From a virus, in UHGV virus genome UHGV-1488538: a DNA stretch of 39,106 nt; one strand, given 5' to 3'. The translations under genes and the position numbers were made by a program. Under the pieces are notes generated by a model. That model had not been told where the DNA came from. It worked only from the letters and a program-made list of their open reading frames with translations, and did no database searches. Below, in pieces: positions 1 to 39,060 of this stretch. Position 1 is the first letter of the stretch; each line of letters opens with the position of its first letter.

Positions 1-79
1 TTATCAATGAAGTGAACGGTATTTCCCGCGTGGTGTATGACATCAGCGGCAAGCCACCAGCGACTATTGAGTGGGAATG
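1..79 (+). CDS. guaA: 3' end of host GMP synthase gene (partial CDS, last ~25 codons plus TGA)
   Basis: Frame starting at nt 3 translates to ...INEVNGISRVVYDISGKPPATIEWE*, which I recognise from memory as the conserved GuaA C-terminus; no start codon in window. Confidence 0.6.
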
Positions 80-82
80 ATT
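66..82. repeat. attL core: 17-bp direct repeat ATTGAGTGGGAATGATT (second copy at 39044-39060)
   Basis: Exact 17/17 identity at both ends of the window; overlaps the guaA stop codon; integrase gene lies immediately inside. Confidence 0.8.
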
Positions 83-15063: not shown

Positions 15064-15140
15064 TGGCGTGGCATGCAGGATTCGAACCTGCGACCAACCG
15101 CTTAGAAGGCGGTTGCTCTGTCCAACTGAGCTAATGCCAC
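15064..15140 (-). tRNA. tRNA-Arg (anticodon UCU)
   Basis: 77-nt cloverleaf folded by hand on the minus strand: 7-bp acceptor stem GTGGCAT/ATGCCAC, D-arm GCTC/GAGC, anticodon stem ACCGC/GCGGT with loop CTTCTAA, T-arm GCAGG-TTCGAAT-CCTGC, encoded CCA. Confidence 0.9.
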
Positions 15141-33120: not shown

Positions 33121-33831
33121 TCAGAAGAACCCTGCCTTGTCGTTGATGTACTCCGCGTGGGTCTGGATATCACGCAGGCATTTGCTCACACCGACGATGT
33201 AGCAGAACATGGTGGTCAGCTCCGCCGCCGCGCCCGATACATCGTGCCCGTCTTCCTGTAACTGGTTCAGCAGATTCATCAGCAGTGAGTTCTCCGTCAG
33301 GCCGAGAACACCAGACGGCGAATGAATCAGGCTGCGGTAGCCGGGCTTCAGTGGGGCGCTGTAGGTTTTGTTCTCTATCTTCATCGCCTGCATTACTGCT
33401 GACGCCGTGGCGTTGGCTACCTGGTCGGCAACCATCTTTATGCGTTCTTCCTGCGGGAGCGAGTTTTTAATGTAACTTCCGGTGCGGCGGATCTGAGGAA
33501 GAACCTCACCTGTAACCCATTTACGAAAGCGGTAGGGGATAGTGCCTGGTGTCACTGCGTCGCGGCAGCGGAGGATCAGTGTGTAGAGGCCTGACTCGGA
33601 GATAATGTTGATCTCTTTTACTCGGCTGTCAAAAATTGCACGATGTTCATGCCCTATGTTGAACATAGACCTTTCATCATCATCCAGTTTTTCAAGTGCT
33701 TGGGTGACGTTTTGGATACGCAGCGCACTACAAACGTCTTGGGCTACAAACCATGGTTGGCCATCGATAATGATGGAACGGATAGGGTTAACAGATTCAA
33801 ATTTGAAGATGGCAGTTTGAGCATTAGCCAT
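33121..33831 (-). CDS. Antirepressor (Bro-N/KilA-N N-terminal domain plus C-terminal domain)
   Basis: N-terminus FKFESVNPIRSIIIDGQPWFVAQDVCSALRI is a classic Bro-N/Ant signature; start at ATG 33831 with GGAG RBS (track GTG at 33846). Confidence 0.8.
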   Translation of the reverse strand: MANAQTAIFKFESVNPIRSIIIDGQPWFVAQDVCSALRIQNVTQALEKLDDDERSMFNIGHEHRAIFDSRVKEINIISESGLYTLILRCRDAVTPGTIPYRFRKWVTGEVLPQIRRTGSYIKNSLPQEERIKMVADQVANATASAVMQAMKIENKTYSAPLKPGYRSLIHSPSGVLGLTENSLLMNLLNQLQEDGHDVSGAAAELTTMFCYIVGVSKCLRDIQTHAEYINDKAGFF

Positions 33832-33859
33832 GGTGGTTATCTCCACTTAGTGATTTTAA

Positions 33860-34146: not shown

Positions 34147-34419
34147 TTATCTGGTTTGTTTTCGTAATTGTTCGGCACAATAGTCGAGATGTGTTTGCAG
34201 ATCCTGCATAGACATCTGTGAGCTGGTGACGTAGTTAATCAGTGCAGTCAGTTCGGCAAGTGGGCCATCGACATTAAATCCATCCTTATCGAGATCCCGG
34301 AGTAATTTCATCAAGTGCGATCCCTCCACCAGTGACCTGACGCCTCCCGGCGTGTGAATCCTTTCGGTAAATCCCTCTTCCAGTGGATAGTGATACTGCT
34401 GCATCTTAATCTTCTCCAT
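34147..34419 (-). CDS. Small protein homologous to antirepressor C-terminal domain; LexA-controlled (candidate SOS antirepressor)
   Basis: 90 aa; about 45% identity by eye to Ant residues ~170-241 (IH.P.GV..L.E.S.LM.LL..L..DG..V.G..AELT, D.QTH..Y); LexA box directly upstream. Confidence 0.7.
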   Translation of the reverse strand: MEKIKMQQYHYPLEEGFTERIHTPGGVRSLVEGSHLMKLLRDLDKDGFNVDGPLAELTALINYVTSSQMSMQDLQTHLDYCAEQLRKQTR

Positions 34420-34424
34420 GCAAT

Positions 34425-34444
34425 AACTGTATATTTATACAGTA
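34425..34444. promoter_or_regulatory. LexA (SOS) box AACTGTATATTTATACAGTA
   Basis: CTGT-N8-ACAG with AT-rich spacer, near-consensus; overlaps putative -10 of small ant-like gene. Confidence 0.8.
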
Positions 34445-34496: not shown

Positions 34497-34600
34497 TATC
34501 TATTCATATTCACAGTCTTTCTATCCATATATGGTTTTTTGGGTAATAGAATAACCAGATATGCGGCGCAACGGGTGCTGCGACTATCTGGAGATTTAAC

Positions 34601-37063
34601 ATGACGGTCTCAACCGAAGTTGACCACAACGAATACACAGGTAACGGCGTTACGACATCATTTCCGTATACCTTCCGTATTTTCAAAAAATCCGACCTGG
34701 TTGTTCAGGTGTCTGACCTTAACGGTAACGTTACAAAACTAGTGCTGGATGCTGGTTATACGGTAACAGGGGCGGGAACTTATAGTGGCGGTGCAGTGGT
34801 TCTTCCGTCGCCGCTTGCTGCTGGCTGGCGAATCACGATAGAGCGTGTGCTTGATGTGGTGCAGGAGACTGATCTTCGCAATCAGGGAAAATTTTTCCCC
34901 GAAGTTCATGAGGATGCATTTGACTACCTGACGATGCTGATCCAGCGATGTTTTGGGTGGTTCAGACGTGCATTGATGAAACCATCTTTGCTTGCAAAAT
35001 ATTACGATGCAAAGCAAAACAGAATATCTAACCTTGCCGATCCATCACTTGAGCAGGACGCTGTAAATAATCGCTCAATGCGTAATTATGTCGATGCTGC
35101 AATCGCCGGAGTTATTGGTGGTTTTGGTTGGTTTATTCAGTATGGTTCTGGAGCGGTATACAGAACGTTCCAGGATAAGATGCGTGATGGTGTCAGCATT
35201 AAGGATTTTGGAGCTCAAAATGGAATCTTAAATGATAACAAGGATGCTTTTACAAAATCATTACATTCGTTTAGCAGTGTTTTTGTTCCGGAAGGGGTAT
35301 TCAATACATCTTTAGTTTCTCTTTCACGTTGTGGCTTGTACGGAACAGGTGGGGGAACGATAAAACAGTATGACAGAGATGGTAATCATCTGGTTTTTAA
35401 CATGCCCGATGGTGGCATGCTTAGTACGCTAACAATTATGGGAAATAAATCAGATGATAGTGTGCAGGGACACCAGGTGTCATTTTCAGGTGGCCATGAT
35501 GTATCGGTTAAAAATATCAGATTTACAAATACGCGAGGACCAGGATTTAGCTTGATCGCTTATCCGGATAATGGTATTCCGTCAGGTTACATTGTTAGAG
35601 ATATAAGAGGAGAGTATTTAGGGTTCGCAAATAATAAAAAAGCAGGTTGTGTGCTTTTTGATTCATCGCAAAATACGCTAATTGATGGTGTGATAGCCAG
35701 AAATTATCCTCAGTTTGGTGCAGTGGAACTTAAAACAGCAGCAAAATATAACATTGTCAGCAATGTTATTGGTGAAGAGTGTCAGCACGTTGTTTACAAT
35801 GGAACTGAGACGGAAACTGCCCCAACGAATAATATCATTAGCAGTGTAATGGCTAACAACCCAAAATACGCCGCAGTAGTTGTTGGCAAGGGGACTGGTA
35901 ACCTGATTTCGGATGTGCTGGTTGATTACTCTGAATCGGACGCAAAGCAGGCGCACGGCGTCACCGTTCAGGGAAATAATAATATTGCCAGTAATATTCT
36001 AATGACTGGGTGTGATGGGAAAAATGAATCAGGAGATCTGCAGGCATCTACAACCATTCGTTTCTTAGATGCTGCACGCAGTAATTATGCGTCAATATTC
36101 CCCATGTATAGTTCTTCCGGCGTGGTTACCTTCGAGGAAGGGTGTATCAGGAACTTTGTTGAAATTAAACATCCGGGTGACAGAAATAATATTCTGAGTT
36201 CTGCATCAGCGGTGACTGGTATTTCCAGTATAGACGGCACTACAAATAGCAATGTTGTTCACGTCCCTGCGCTTGGTCAGTACGTTGGGACTATGTCAGG
36301 GCGTTTTGAATGGTGGGTTAAATATTTTAACCTTGCTAACCAGACGCTTGTTTCTGCAGATAAATTCAGAATGCTTGCTGAAGGCGATGTATCTCTGGCT
36401 GTGGGAGGCGGTATAAGTTCGCAATTGAAATTATTCAATAGTGATAATACTAAAGGCACTATGTCGCTAATAAATGGAAATATTCGAATATCTACTGGAA
36501 ATTCAGAATATATACAGTTTTCTGATTCAGCCATGACACCATCGACAACGAATACTTATTCTCTTGGGTTGGCTGGTCGTGCATGGTCGGGGGGATTTAC
36601 CCAGTCAGCGTTTACGGTGCTGTCCGATGCGCGTTTCAAGACTGCTCCAGAGGTTATTGATGAGAAAATACTGGACGCATGGGAAAGAGTGGAATGGGTT
36701 TCATACCAGTACCTTGACAGGATCGAAGTGAAAGGTAAAGACGGAGCAAGATGGCACTTTGGTGCAGTTGCGCAGCATGTTATCAGTGTATTTCAGAATG
36801 AAGGCATAGATGTGTCACGACTGGCATTTATCTGTTATGACAAGTGGAATGAGACCCCGGCAGAATACAGGGATGTGACGGAAGAAGAGCATTCTGCAGG
36901 AGTTTACCCACTTATACAGACAAAGGTTCTGGTACGCGAAGCCGTCGAGGCTGGTGAATGTTACGGTATCCGTTATGAAGAGGCTCTGATTCTGGAATCT
37001 GCGATGATGAGACGCAGGGTTAAAAAGCTGGAAGAGCAAGTTTTGCAATTAACAGGGAATTGA
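34601..37063 (+). CDS. Tailspike with beta-helix depolymerase-like centre and C-terminal self-cleaving chaperone (S74-like) domain
   Basis: 820 aa; C-terminal LSDARFKTAPEVIDEKILDAWERVEWVSYQY... and coiled-coil tail match the intramolecular chaperone autoproteolysis domain. Confidence 0.8.
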   Translation: MTVSTEVDHNEYTGNGVTTSFPYTFRIFKKSDLVVQVSDLNGNVTKLVLDAGYTVTGAGTYSGGAVVLPSPLAAGWRITIERVLDVVQETDLRNQGKFFPEVHEDAFDYLTMLIQRCFGWFRRALMKPSLLAKYYDAKQNRISNLADPSLEQDAVNNRSMRNYVDAAIAGVIGGFGWFIQYGSGAVYRTFQDKMRDGVSIKDFGAQNGILNDNKDAFTKSLHSFSSVFVPEGVFNTSLVSLSRCGLYGTGGGTIKQYDRDGNHLVFNMPDGGMLSTLTIMGNKSDDSVQGHQVSFSGGHDVSVKNIRFTNTRGPGFSLIAYPDNGIPSGYIVRDIRGEYLGFANNKKAGCVLFDSSQNTLIDGVIARNYPQFGAVELKTAAKYNIVSNVIGEECQHVVYNGTETETAPTNNIISSVMANNPKYAAVVVGKGTGNLISDVLVDYSESDAKQAHGVTVQGNNNIASNILMTGCDGKNESGDLQASTTIRFLDAARSNYASIFPMYSSSGVVTFEEGCIRNFVEIKHPGDRNNILSSASAVTGISSIDGTTNSNVVHVPALGQYVGTMSGRFEWWVKYFNLANQTLVSADKFRMLAEGDVSLAVGGGISSQLKLFNSDNTKGTMSLINGNIRISTGNSEYIQFSDSAMTPSTTNTYSLGLAGRAWSGGFTQSAFTVLSDARFKTAPEVIDEKILDAWERVEWVSYQYLDRIEVKGKDGARWHFGAVAQHVISVFQNEGIDVSRLAFICYDKWNETPAEYRDVTEEEHSAGVYPLIQTKVLVREAVEAGECYGIRYEEALILESAMMRRRVKKLEEQVLQLTGN

Positions 37064-37135: not shown

Positions 37136-37540
37136 ATGTCATTCCAACTAACCAATGAAACTTCAAATCAGTGGCTTAGTGTTAGTTCTCTTGCTGCGGT
37201 TATTGCAGGTGTCCCTCCGGAGGTTGCTTTGGGGGCTTTGGCTGGGGCGGTAATTTTTGTTACCTCTGCGGTAGAGTATCCTATTCGTCGTCGTGTACTC
37301 TTGTCGATGCTTAGCTTTCTCTGCGGCCTTCTTTTTTATAAACCAGCAGCATCAATTCTTATCGGCATAGCCAGCCTGATCCCTACCATCACGCAGGACT
37401 CTTTTGAAAAAGGGATTGTTTTCTCAGCTGGCGCATTCGTGTCAGCAATTGTTGCTGTGCGTATTGGTATATGGCTCTATCACCGTTCCGATAATCCACG
37501 CGAGTTAATTCCGGGGAGAAAAGACGATGGTAACGCATGA
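37136..37540 (+). CDS. Holin-like membrane protein (134 aa)
   Basis: Multiple hydrophobic segments; first gene of lysis cassette. Confidence 0.5.
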   Translation: MSFQLTNETSNQWLSVSSLAAVIAGVPPEVALGALAGAVIFVTSAVEYPIRRRVLLSMLSFLCGLLFYKPAASILIGIASLIPTITQDSFEKGIVFSAGAFVSAIVAVRIGIWLYHRSDNPRELIPGRKDDGNA

Positions 37541-37835
37541 GTTTTTTTTGCTTATCACCAATGCAGTTATTTGTACTGGCATAGCAATTCGCGTTGTCAC
37601 ATTCCGGCGTAACGGATCTCAACATCGAAGATGGGGAGGGTGGCTTGCTTATTTCCTTATTGTTGCTGCGGCAAGTATTCCTGTTCGTGTCGTCTATGCA
37701 ATCTGGTTACGCACGCCAATGGCTGTGGATTTATCTGAGGTCATTATCAACGCTGTCATGCTTGCCGCGGTTATTAAAACACGCGGTAACGTTGTTCATA
37801 TTTTCAAAATATCGAGGTCTAAACATGGAGATTAA
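37527..37835 (+). CDS. Holin/antiholin-like membrane protein (102 aa)
   Basis: Hydrophobic helices, directly upstream of endolysin. Confidence 0.5.
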   Translation: MVTHEFFLLITNAVICTGIAIRVVTFRRNGSQHRRWGGWLAYFLIVAAASIPVRVVYAIWLRTPMAVDLSEVIINAVMLAAVIKTRGNVVHIFKISRSKHGD

Positions 37836-38454
37836 ACAATTCCAGCGAGCTGCTGGTATTAGCGAGGCGCTGGCCGCACGCTGGTTCTCGCATATAACGT
37901 CTGCGATGAAAGAGTTTGGTATCAGCAAACCCGAAGATCAGGCAATGTTTATTGCTCAGGTCGGGCATGAGTCTGGTGGCTTCAACCGGTTGCAGGAAAA
38001 TTTCAACTACAGCGTCACCGGACTGGCTAACTTCGTTCGGGCTGGGCGTCTCACCCAGGGACAGGCTAACGCACTGGGCCGCCGTGCTGGTGAGCCACCA
38101 TTGCCACTCGAGCGCCAGCGCGCGATCGCAAATCTGGTGTACAGCAAACGCATGGGTAACAATGCCTCTGGTGATGGCTGGAATTACCGTGGTCGCGGAC
38201 TTATCCAGATTACCGGTTTGAATAACTATCGTGACTGTGGAAACGGTCTTAAGGTTGACCTGCTGGAGAGTCCTGAACTGCTGGCGCAGGACGAATACGC
38301 GGCTCGTAGCGCGGCGTGGTTCTTTGCCAGCAAAGGATGCATGAAGTATACCGGCGATATTGCACGTGTAACTCTGATTATCAATGGTGGCCGGAACGGC
38401 ATCGACGACCGGCGCGCGCGGTACGTCACTGCCAGTAAGGTGCTGGCTATATGA
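37825..38454 (+). CDS. Endolysin, glycoside hydrolase family 19 (chitinase-like lysozyme)
   Basis: FIAQVGHESGGF...YRGRGLIQITGLNNY motifs; start at ATG 37825 (track ORF begins 37594 in same frame). Confidence 0.85.
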   Translation: MEIKQFQRAAGISEALAARWFSHITSAMKEFGISKPEDQAMFIAQVGHESGGFNRLQENFNYSVTGLANFVRAGRLTQGQANALGRRAGEPPLPLERQRAIANLVYSKRMGNNASGDGWNYRGRGLIQITGLNNYRDCGNGLKVDLLESPELLAQDEYAARSAAWFFASKGCMKYTGDIARVTLIINGGRNGIDDRRARYVTASKVLAI

Positions 38455-38933
38455 TCTGGGCATTCGTAAAAGCATATTGGAAACAGATGCTTATTGTGTT
38501 GATGCTTGCTGCTCTGTTCATCGTCGGAGTGGTTTCCTGGAATATACACGGCAGTCGCCAGTACGATGCCGGGTATGCGCAGGCGGAAGAAGACCGCAAA
38601 GCCGAAGAAGACAAAGTTCGTCAGTACTACGAACAGGAGAAAGTGGCCAATGAACGTGAAGCTCAGCAGAGGATCGACCAGGCGCGCAATGATGCTCTTG
38701 ATGCTGCCGCTCGCGCTGGCCGGTTGCAGCAACAACTCTTTGCCATCCGTGAGCAGCTCAGGCAGTATAACGCCATTGTCGGCGCTGGGACGTCAGCCGC
38801 AGACACCGGAGTTTTGCTTGCCGACGTGCTCAGCAAATCTCTCGAGAGAAACAGACAACTGGCAGAGTATGCTGACCGGGCAGCCGAAGCCGGAAGAGTC
38901 TGCGAAAAACAGTACGACACACTGACCAGATAG
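38451..38933 (+). CDS. Rz: i-spanin (Rz-like)
   Basis: N-terminal TM helix, coiled-coil periplasmic domain; ATGA overlap with endolysin. Confidence 0.8.
   Translation: MIWAFVKAYWKQMLIVLMLAALFIVGVVSWNIHGSRQYDAGYAQAEEDRKAEEDKVRQYYEQEKVANEREAQQRIDQARNDALDAAARAGRLQQQLFAIREQLRQYNAIVGAGTSAADTGVLLADVLSKSLERNRQLAEYADRAAEAGRVCEKQYDTLTR
38689..38925 (+). CDS. Rz1: o-spanin (Rz1-like lipoprotein) embedded in +1 frame of Rz
   Basis: MMLLMLPLALAGCSNNS lipobox; Pro-rich; entirely within Rz gene. Confidence 0.75.
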   Translation: MMLLMLPLALAGCSNNSLPSVSSSGSITPLSALGRQPQTPEFCLPTCSANLSRETDNWQSMLTGQPKPEESAKNSTTH

Positions 38934-39043: not shown

Positions 39044-39060
39044 ATTGAGTGGGAATGATT
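39044..39060. repeat. attR core: 17-bp direct repeat ATTGAGTGGGAATGATT
   Basis: Exact copy of 66-82; followed by a host-type terminator hairpin 39086-39106. Confidence 0.8.

Follow-up and report, generated by a model that had tools for sequence, protein, structure and literature searches.

A prophage tailspike homologous to K5 capsule lyases, with a predicted self-cleaving C-terminal chaperone domain

Gene and modular organization of the tailspike

Which surface polysaccharide is the tailspike of this prophage likely to act on, and would its C-terminus be removed by self-cleavage? The window, meaning the whole stretch of 39,106 nucleotides that we analysed, corresponds to a complete prophage that lies between guaA and yfgI. 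The reading frame reported for the tailspike gene in a preliminary description of this sequence proved exact. The ORF list contains a single frame of 820 aa at 34601..37063 on the + strand, including the stop codon, which has an ATG start and encodes an 89.7-kDa precursor. A Shine-Dalgarno sequence, GGAG, can be read directly from the sequence 7 nt 5' of this ATG (34590..34593, + strand), and the N-terminus, MTVSTEV..., is the same start as that of the homologues in the alignment. The protein is 100% identical to RefSeq WP_021576901.1 in E. coli ECSC054 and is matched by PHROG tail spike families with an E-value of 1e-222. Neither a signal peptide nor a separate export route was apparent for the tailspike. 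A scan for promoters and terminators around the gene yielded 8 sites versus 7.3 and 5 sites versus 2.8 in shuffled sequence. Since this is no excess, we claim no transcription signals for the gene. The tailspike most probably consists of three modules: an anchor (aa 1-198), a lyase with its stalk (aa 199-674) and a chaperone domain (aa 675-820).

The central region is related to K5 lyases

The central region had been described as beta-helix-like and interpreted as an O-antigen or capsule depolymerase. The fold was confirmed, and the decisive evidence was a match to the crystal structure of the K5 lyase KflA (2x3h); the alignment spans aa 199-675 from end to end and has no large indels (E-value 1e-183, about 56% identity). 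From this alignment, AF2 and Foldseek we assigned aa 199-560 (35195..36280, + strand) as the predicted right-handed parallel beta-helix that would form the K5 (heparosan) lyase catalytic domain. The AF2 model of the beta-helix had pLDDT values mostly between 80 and 96, and its top Foldseek match was again 2x3h (E-value 1.5e-46). The Pfam Beta_helix match was weak and below the cut-off (E-value 9.5e-4).

Similarity to K5 lyases extends to the C-terminal end of the protein. Over aa 199-820, the tailspike is 56.4% identical to KflA of coliphage K5 (Y10025.2, 'K5 lyase') at 99% coverage, and about 56% identical to the phage K1-5 lyase. The best sequence match among solved structures was 9vvr (E-value 3e-224), which covers aa 192-814 and thus includes the chaperone domain. 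Homologues of the tailspike carry the source name 'K5 lyase', and of 103 alignment columns without variation among 18 K5-lyase homologues, the tailspike retains 102. Candidate active-site residues of the lyase lie within 35726..35797 on the + strand, and include E376 and K378 (35726-35734) as well as Y399 (35795-35797). These align with E206, K208 and Y229 of a 632-aa KflA-like protein (P0021), and all 18 homologues have the E and the K. E206, K208 and Y229 were reportedly proposed as the catalytic residues of KflA by Thompson et al. in 2010.

Judged by its sequence, the central part of the tailspike is a homologue of K5 (heparosan) capsule lyases and not a generic depolymerase. Because this homology covers aa 199-820, capsule rather than O-antigen is the likely substrate of the lyase. 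The capsule half of the earlier interpretation was thus retained. We rejected an O-antigen depolymerase, as the homology to KflA spans its full length.

The C-terminal chaperone domain and the stalk

The C-terminal ~145 aa had been proposed to form an intramolecular chaperone domain, and a domain search bore this out for the 146 residues from S675 to N820 (36623..37060, + strand; 16.9 kDa). The Pfam family Peptidase_S74 (PF13884) matched aa 675-735 at an E-value of 1.4e-13, far beyond chance, and scored 51.3 bits where the gathering score is 22. With phmmer, the chaperone structures 3gw6 (E-value 1e-20) and 3gud (E-value 2e-20) were found. The AF2 model of the domain had a pLDDT of 86, with values >90 from S675 on. 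Its Foldseek matches in the PDB were 3gw6 (E-value 3e-12) and 3gud (TM 0.85, rmsd 2.8 A), followed by 4uw8 and 7dc3, and this search returned no significant matches beyond chaperone/ICA domains. The domain ends the protein and directly follows the stalk. Sequence homology, the Ser-Lys dyad described below, position and predicted fold agree, and support the assignment of aa 675-820 as a C-terminal intramolecular chaperone (S74) domain. A long helix at aa 792-819 (36974..37057, + strand), assigned by DSSP on both monomer models, would be expected to form a trimerising coiled coil. In the literature on MyRF and endoNF, the long terminal helix is a coiled coil (PMC8326128).

In this family, the catalytic dyad is defined by a Ser at the cleavage site and a Lys five residues later (PMC8326128). 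The tailspike contains S675-D-A-R-F-K680 at 36623..36640 on the + strand (codons TCC GAT GCG CGT TTC AAG). By alignment, S675 is the predicted scissile and nucleophilic Ser and K680 the predicted general base of the autoproteolytic dyad. They align with S911(A) and K916 of the endosialidase endoNF (3gw6) and with SDERHK of 3gud, a phi29-family neck appendage protein. A conserved S-D-x-R-x-K had been noted around 36621-36640, and apart from a trivial offset of 2 nt at its start the motif is indeed present, but only its S and K are conserved family-wide. Among 51 homologues, the Ser is found in 50 (the remaining one has Cys) and the Lys in all 51, while the Asp is nearly always present and conservation of the Arg does not extend beyond the K5-lyase group. 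We therefore rejected S-D-x-R-x-K as a family-defining motif. K680, R717, H719 and G721 are invariant among the homologues.

Upstream of the chaperone domain, aa 561-674 (36281..36622, + strand) form the predicted C-terminal stalk, which is expected to be intertwined among three chains. This assignment is based on an alignment to the C-terminal intertwined region of 2x3h, which the stalk follows up to the final residue of that structure. Confidence of the monomer model was low at aa 566-604 and at aa 656-670, which would be expected of a stretch that acquires its fold only in the trimer. The family mechanism involves the Ser-Lys dyad, a stalk Arg and a requirement for trimers (PMC8326128, PMC4690869). 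In endoNF (R897) and T5 (R1250), it is a stalk Arg of the neighbouring chain that completes the active site (PMC4690869, PMC8326128). The sole nearby Arg in the tailspike is R660, which is located at -15 rather than -14, one residue off endoNF R897 in the alignment. R660 is a candidate for the neighbouring-chain arginine. Two observations on relatives bear on cleavage. In the solved structure of mature KflA (2x3h), the last residue of the chain is the one that aligns with S675, and a review lists the K1-5 K5 lyase, a 632-aa homologue, at 67 kDa with a mature form of 52 kDa (PMC5380687). Release of the chaperone domain after trimerisation is likewise predicted for the tailspike.

The virion anchor and its prophage

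The N-terminal module, aa 1-198 (34601..35194, + strand), was assigned as a putative epsilon15-like virion anchor from PHROG, PDB and prophage tailspike matches. It is ~95% identical to the anchors of tailspikes from many E. coli prophages that are unrelated to ours in the centre, and the boundary of the exchangeable cassette lies near aa 194-205. PHROG tail families cover aa 1-166 with E-values down to 1e-98 or better, and aa 1-179 match the tail-fibre N-terminus of PDB 28lx/8ck1 (E-value 6.5e-30). When the gene was compared to phage records with megablast, the N-terminal 25% alone was matched. The phage DNA matches end at nt 582-615 of the gene, and Salmonella phage VB_ST_E15 matches nt 1-346 at 74% nucleotide identity. 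The lyase allele is absent from the isolated phages of the searched collection, where even the closest protein shares <60% identity.

The prophage that carries this anchor has structural genes of the epsilon15 type. The prophage has a complete gene set, including an integrase, replication, terminase, portal, capsid, tail, core protein and lysis genes, and its 17-bp att repeat is present and intact. In the related prophage of E. coli ECSC054 the tailspike is 100% identical and the remainder ~96-98% identical. Annotations of the ECSC054 prophage include a gp10 capsid staple and a T7 gp14-family core protein.

Association with the K5 capsule locus

The tailspike gene is 99.7-100% conserved in 68 complete E. 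coli genomes. One of these lysogens, ECSC054, carries kpsMT-kfiABCD-kpsSCUDEF. We found kfiC in 37 of the ~68 tailspike-positive complete E. coli genomes versus ~233 of ~5358 others, an odds ratio of ~26 that is inflated because the carriers are clonally related and many look like one lineage. Conversely, ~31 of the 68 lysogens do not have kfiC. ATCC BAA-2469, the one kfiC-negative lysogen that we checked, contains a different capsule (kps) region 2. The suggestion that the depolymerase determines host range is reasonable but was borne out only in part, since about half of the lysogens are without kfiC today. A literature search on K5 lyase and ST131 returned nothing about the prophage of the window.

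Comparison with known tailspikes and chaperone domains

The chromosomal (prophage) K5 lyase or 'eliminase' of E. coli K5, ElmA, was reportedly described by Legoux et al. in 1996, and we take it to be 820 aa long as well. ElmA is a prophage-borne K5 lyase in an E. coli chromosome and a member of the chaperone-domain family, as predicted for the tailspike studied here. A phage tailspike (H31) that shares only the N-terminal module with our gene is annotated as 'eliminase', a label that fits ElmA having the same N-terminus as our tailspike. Very probably, the tailspike is ElmA or an allele of it. Among 40 of the 384 members of the query's cluster and both members of an 89%-identical cluster, the names ElmA, eliminase and heparosan lyase were absent and only generic names were found. 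The latter cluster reflects the existence of a second 820-aa variant (P0016) that is 89% identical to the tailspike. According to earlier work, E. coli K5 carries ElmA as a prophage K5 lyase (PMC3594737), heparosan is shortened by a lyase of phage origin encoded in the K5 genome (PMC5412866), and the K5 lyases (ElmA) constitute one of the four founding families of the chaperone domain (PMC8326128).

KflA (coliphage K5/K5A; 2x3h; Y10025.2) and the K5 lyase of phage K1-5 share the beta-helix lyase, the stalk and the S74 domain with the tailspike, and S505, the cleavage Ser of the 632-aa KflA-like protein, corresponds to S675. They differ at the N-terminus and in phage lifestyle. KflA, at 632 aa, has a short N-terminal adaptor-binding peptide and belongs to lytic SP6-like phages, whereas our tailspike has the ~198-aa epsilon15-like anchor instead and belongs to a temperate phage. 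A loop in the chaperone domain (aa 741-790) is also ~17 residues longer than in KflA. The 9vvr tail spike (843 aa, 18 chains) and the 843-aa tailspikes of T7-like phages such as vB_EcoP-101120B2 match aa 192-814, but have a T7-gp17-like N-terminus (PF03906). We found no publication for 9vvr in our literature search. Conversely, tailspikes of the Salmonella phage epsilon15 and E. coli phiV10 type resemble ours in the N-terminal anchor and in the architecture of the whole prophage, including the epsilon15 gp10-type capsid staple protein. However, they target O-antigen and have catalytic centres unrelated to this lyase.

The chaperone domains of endoNF (3gw6), the phi29-family neck appendage (3gud), T5 pb1 (4uw8) and the eukaryotic MyRF ICA (7dc3), of the MEROPS/Pfam S74 type, have the fold predicted for the tailspike domain and the Ser-x4-Lys dyad. 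The conserved R-x-H-F-G motif, the long terminal helix and the place after a trimeric beta-stalk are also common to these domains and the tailspike. Differences are that identity is 25-36%, that the passenger upstream in the tailspike is a predicted lyase and not a sialidase or fibre, and that the stalk Arg is offset by one.

Proposed mechanism and alternative explanations

We propose that the gene encodes a K5 tailspike, a protein that both binds and destroys the capsule as its receptor and has a self-cleaving chaperone, carried by an epsilon15-like temperate podophage integrated at the guaA 3' end in E. coli. We assign this explanation a probability of about 0.88. It is based on the homologies, the conserved dyad, the predicted folds, the location of the gene in a prophage and its co-occurrence with the K5 capsule locus, from which we infer the trimerisation, cleavage, substrate and enzymatic activity of the tailspike. 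Three nascent chains would associate via the chaperone module, with the long terminal helices trimerising, and the chaperone trimer would then template folding of the intertwined stalk. Once the stalk is correctly folded, S675 would adjoin K680, probably aided by an arginine of the neighbouring chain, and self-cleavage would occur at the L674-S675 bond. Departure of the 16.9-kDa fragment would leave a kinetically stable trimer of 72.7-kDa chains. On the virion, aa 1-198 would anchor this trimer to the tail, while the lyase would bind the K5 capsule (heparosan, -4GlcA-beta1,4-GlcNAc-alpha1-) and cut it by beta-elimination, so that the virion could tunnel to the outer membrane.

Alternatively, a K5-lyase fold may have drifted in specificity towards an O-antigen or a non-K5 capsule, in which case host range would not be set by K5. 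Such a shift is conceivable because the tailspike shares only ~56% identity with characterised K5 lyases, a value that falls to ~40% in the first third of the beta-helix (aa 199-330). The ~31 lysogens without kfiC, and the other kps region 2 of ATCC BAA-2469, point in the same direction. We nevertheless consider drift improbable, given the end-to-end alignment to KflA without large indels, the near-complete retention of the group-invariant columns, E376 and K378 among them, and the strong enrichment in kfiC-positive genomes. In addition, the prophage K5 lyase ElmA has been described in E. coli K5 (PMC3594737, PMC5412866), and the non-K5 hosts can be explained by capsule switching after lysogeny.

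An even less probable explanation is that the prophage is domesticated, the gene being kept so that the lysogen sheds or trims its own K5 capsule, as with ElmA activity in culture broths, and not as a virion receptor-binding protein. The phage-derived K5 lyase in the K5 genome does release and shorten heparosan in fermentation (PMC5412866), and the near-identity of the gene across the 68 genomes would also fit. Against this, the prophage gene set is complete and its att repeats are intact, the virion anchor is undamaged and shares ~95% identity with its counterparts in other phages of this type, and no export route is evident. Spontaneous induction would explain the release of lyase. Finally, the C-terminal domain could be an S74 relic, degenerate or simply retained, which assists in folding and stays uncleaved, given that cleavage is here a prediction from sequence and that the stalk arginine did not align exactly. 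Yet both dyad residues and the family-invariant R717, H719 and G721 are present, the closest solved homologue, KflA, is in a cleaved form ending at the aligned Ser, and 632-aa homologues are reported to go from 67 to 52 kDa (PMC5380687). This makes a relic very improbable. A self-cleaving K5 tailspike on a temperate podophage is the explanation that we favour.

Implications for annotation and capsule evolution

The tailspike is of an already known kind, because K5 lyases (ElmA) are named in the literature among the founding families of the chaperone domain, and it extends neither the known biology of K5 lyases nor that of chaperone domains. Its practical value is mainly in annotation: the RefSeq name is 'tail fiber domain-containing protein', but our evidence supports 'K5 (heparosan) capsule lyase tailspike, self-cleaving C-terminal chaperone domain'. 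The K5-lyase name predicts the capsule target of the phage, and flags an enzyme able to shorten heparosan in K5 production strains. For a recombinant anti-K5 depolymerase, the construct boundary would be at residue 674/675, yet the protein would be expressed with the chaperone domain.

Given that about half of the carrier genomes have lost the K5 capsule genes or never had them, it is also conceivable, although we consider it unlikely, that the resident lyase acts on the lysogen itself or that the tailspike recognises a second receptor. Leaky or SOS-driven expression of the lyase might strip the lysogen of its own heparosan capsule and thereby favour a change of capsule type, or loss of the capsule, in lineages such as ST131. 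If the lyase did act on the lysogen, or a second receptor were involved, the prophage tailspike would be a driver of capsule-type evolution, beyond its role as a key to host range.

The tailspike contains a C-terminal chaperone domain

The tailspike gene (window 34601-37063, + strand), at the coordinates of the preliminary description, consists of one ORF that starts with ATG and encodes 820 aa. A GGAG lies 7 nt 5' of the ATG, and in the alignment the product has the same start as its homologues. Promoter and terminator scans of the gene gave only chance-level hits.

The domain search placed Peptidase_S74 ("chaperone of endosialidase") at aa 675-735 (E 1.4e-13, 51.3 bits), well above the curated Pfam cut-off of 22 bits. 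The S-D-x-R-x-K motif previously placed at 36621-36640 is real, although its true start is 2 nt further on: it reads S675-D-A-R-F-K680 at 36623-36640 (+; codons TCC GAT GCG CGT TTC AAG). The C-terminal part, described as ~145 aa, comprises 146 aa from S675. When the last 205 aa were searched against PDB sequences, they matched the chaperone domains of the endosialidase endoNF (3gw6, E 1e-20) and of the neck appendage protein of the phi29 family (3gud, E 2e-20); further matches were 6eu4, the tailspike of an Acinetobacter phage, and 4uw8, the L-shaped fibre of T5. The endoNF cleavage-site residue (replaced by Ala in the S911A crystals) aligns with S675, and endoNF K916 with K680; 3gud has S-D-E-R-H-K at these positions. 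In this domain family the Ser-Lys pair is the autoproteolytic dyad, and cleavage requires the trimer (PMC8326128; PMC4690869).

Across an alignment of 51 homologues, K680, R717, H719 and G721 are invariant, while S675 is kept in 50 and is Cys in the remaining one. The Asp of the motif is almost always there, and its Arg is conserved in the K5-lyase group only. The Cys homologue (P0112, 809 aa) reads ...IATCDATHK... and retains the Lys and R-H-G positions; judged from its sequence, it may be a Cys-nucleophile S74 variant or else a sequencing variant.

An AlphaFold2 model of the chaperone region (aa 641-820) had a mean pLDDT of 86, with values over 90 from S675 onward, and ended in a 28-residue helix. 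Its significant Foldseek neighbours in the PDB were chaperone/ICA domains only: 3gw6 (E 3e-12), 3gud (TM 0.85, rmsd 2.8 Å), 4uw8 and 7dc3, the last being the ICA domain of the eukaryotic protein MyRF.

The central region is homologous to K5 lyases

The K5 (heparosan) lyase KflA of coliphage K5A (2x3h) aligned with aa 199-675 without large gaps (E 1e-183). In 2x3h the chain stops precisely at the position that aligns with S675, which is indirect evidence that the mature tailspike may end near there. The highest-scoring sequence match to a solved structure was 9vvr, a "tail spike protein" of 843 aa (E 3e-224, aa 192-814), for which a literature search found no paper. In tblastn searches of phage records with aa 199-820, the K5 lyase of phage K5 (Y10025.2) showed 56.4% identity over 99% of the query and that of K1-5 56.2%. 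No match in this collection exceeded 60% identity, and none of its isolated phages carries this tailspike allele. Relatives found in the protein search are 632, 784 and 843 aa long, and several of them carry the name "K5 lyase" in their source.

The central beta-helix of the preliminary description reappeared in the full-length model, which confidently predicts a right-handed beta-helix at aa ~197-560 and has 2x3h as its top Foldseek match (E 1.5e-46). Model confidence was low at aa 566-604 and 656-670, as expected of a stalk whose folding requires the intertwined trimer. The tailspike keeps 102 of the 103 columns that are invariant among 18 K5-lyase-group homologues. In the KflA-like protein of 632 aa, E206, K208 and Y229, the residues reportedly proposed as catalytic by Thompson et al. 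2010, correspond to E376, K378 and Y399 of the tailspike, and S505 to S675. The K1-5 lyase is 67 kDa with a mature form of 52 kDa (PMC5380687, review), which fits cleavage at the Ser aligned with S675.

The N-terminal anchor is shared among tailspikes with unrelated centres

Residues 1-198 share ~95% identity with many tailspikes with unrelated centres from E. coli prophages, and have nothing in common with the lytic-phage K5 lyases. This segment matched PHROG tail families and, among solved structures, the N-terminal part of a podophage tail fibre (28lx/8ck1, E 6.5e-30). At the nucleotide level, isolated epsilon15/phiV10-like phages match the gene only as far as nt 582-615, which places the cassette junction there; the swap point between anchor and centre lies at about aa 194-205. 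Among 5426 complete E. coli genomes, the anchor module (window 34601-35194) was found in 493, whereas the tailspike gene was found at full length and at least 99.7% identity in only 68, every time on the chromosome. The one anchor is combined with many receptor-binding centres, including GH28-like, peptidase G2 and GDSL esterase types.

Proposed maturation and relation to ElmA

Maturation is best explained by the textbook mechanism of the chaperone-domain family. The C-terminal domains of three chains would trimerise and then template the intertwined stalk, and correct folding of the stalk would activate the S675/K680 dyad, probably aided by an arginine from a neighbouring chain. The sole candidate for the latter is R660, which is one residue off endoNF R897 in the alignment. 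Cleavage would release a 16.9-kDa domain and leave a stable trimer of 72.7-kDa chains, which would dock to the tail via aa 1-198 and degrade heparosan by beta-elimination. What the analysis shows is the homology, the conserved residues, the predicted fold and the association between genomes; the steps beyond these are inferred.

A phage protein that has only the tailspike N-terminus in common is annotated "eliminase", and ElmA, the closest known system, is presumably also 820 aa long. Taken together, these points indicate that the tailspike is very probably ElmA or an ElmA allele; the source names of the cluster members that we read are generic. K5 lyases, with ElmA as the example, are one of the four phage protein families from which this chaperone domain was defined (PMC8326128). 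ElmA is listed as a K5 lyase encoded by a prophage of E. coli K5 (PMC3594737), and in fermentations heparosan is shortened by a K5 lyase of phage origin that is integrated in the K5 genome (PMC5412866). Whether or not the tailspike is ElmA, proteins of this kind are established, as are their domain architecture and the way in which they mature.

Prophage context

A 17-bp direct repeat, ATTGAGTGGGAATGATT, occurs at window 66-82 and 39044-39060 and corresponds to the guaA 3' end (last codons and stop). These repeats are the attL and attR cores of a prophage integrated at the guaA 3' end, and the window is the whole prophage. E. coli ECSC054 carries an element between guaA and yfgI whose tailspike is 100% identical and whose remainder is ~96-98% identical, with a few modules swapped. 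Its annotated genes include those for an integrase, RecT and replication protein P; for the terminase, portal and major capsid protein, with a capsid staple of the epsilon15 gp10 type; for proteins of the tail and internal core, after which comes the tailspike; and for a pair of holins, a GH19 endolysin and a DUF2514 protein. A tRNA-Arg (anticodon TCT; window 15064-15140, -) lies between the terminase and portal genes and is also annotated in ECSC054.

Directly 3' of the tailspike, on the same strand, is a lysis cassette (37136-38933, +) of two holin-like ORFs (37136-37540 and 37527-37835, +), then a GH19 endolysin and a DUF2514 protein. Since the genes 5' of the tailspike are encoded on the other strand, the tailspike and lysis genes seem to form a rightward unit of their own.

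A near-consensus LexA (SOS) box, AACTGTATATTTATACAGTA, with two mismatches to TACTGTATATATATACAGTA, is located at 34425-34444, between the tailspike start and an 85-aa ORF (34147-34404, -). It was the single match in the window, and none of 100 shuffles gave one. The 85-aa ORF lies just 3' of the box, which on the minus strand also overlaps a -10-like hexamer, TATAAA; this suggests a small SOS-controlled gene, possibly antirepressor-like, divergent from the tailspike. With the C-terminal third of the BRO-N domain protein next to it (33121-33846, -), this ORF shares 42% identity (E 9e-16); from sequence, the two look like paralogous modules without and with the BRO-N DNA-binding part.

Association with the K5 capsule locus

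ECSC054 has a K5 capsule locus comprising kpsMT, kfiA, kfiB, kfiC, kfiD and kpsSCUDEF. Its kfiB and kfiC are separated by an IS5 element plus a transposase pseudogene (NZ_AP024112.1 876.5-878.5 kb), an insertion that might affect capsule expression in this K5-lyase-prophage strain.

We cross-tabulated genomes with a chimeric query of the lyase-specific tailspike part and kfiC. It matched 338 places in 301 genomes, so that 37 genomes have both; with the 68 tailspike carriers, this gives ~270 kfiC-positive genomes. Tailspike and kfiC co-occur with an odds ratio of ~26 (Fisher p ~3e-31, overstated because many carriers are clonally related). kfiC is absent from ~31 of the 68 carriers, and the predicted capsule specificity therefore disagrees with the present host capsule in about half of the lysogens. 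In one such carrier, ATCC BAA-2469, region 2 of the kps locus is a different one and contains glycosyltransferases, wecB and wecC (NZ_CP158435.1 797-811 kb). The simplest explanation for the kfiC-negative carriers is a putative replacement of the capsule after lysogeny.
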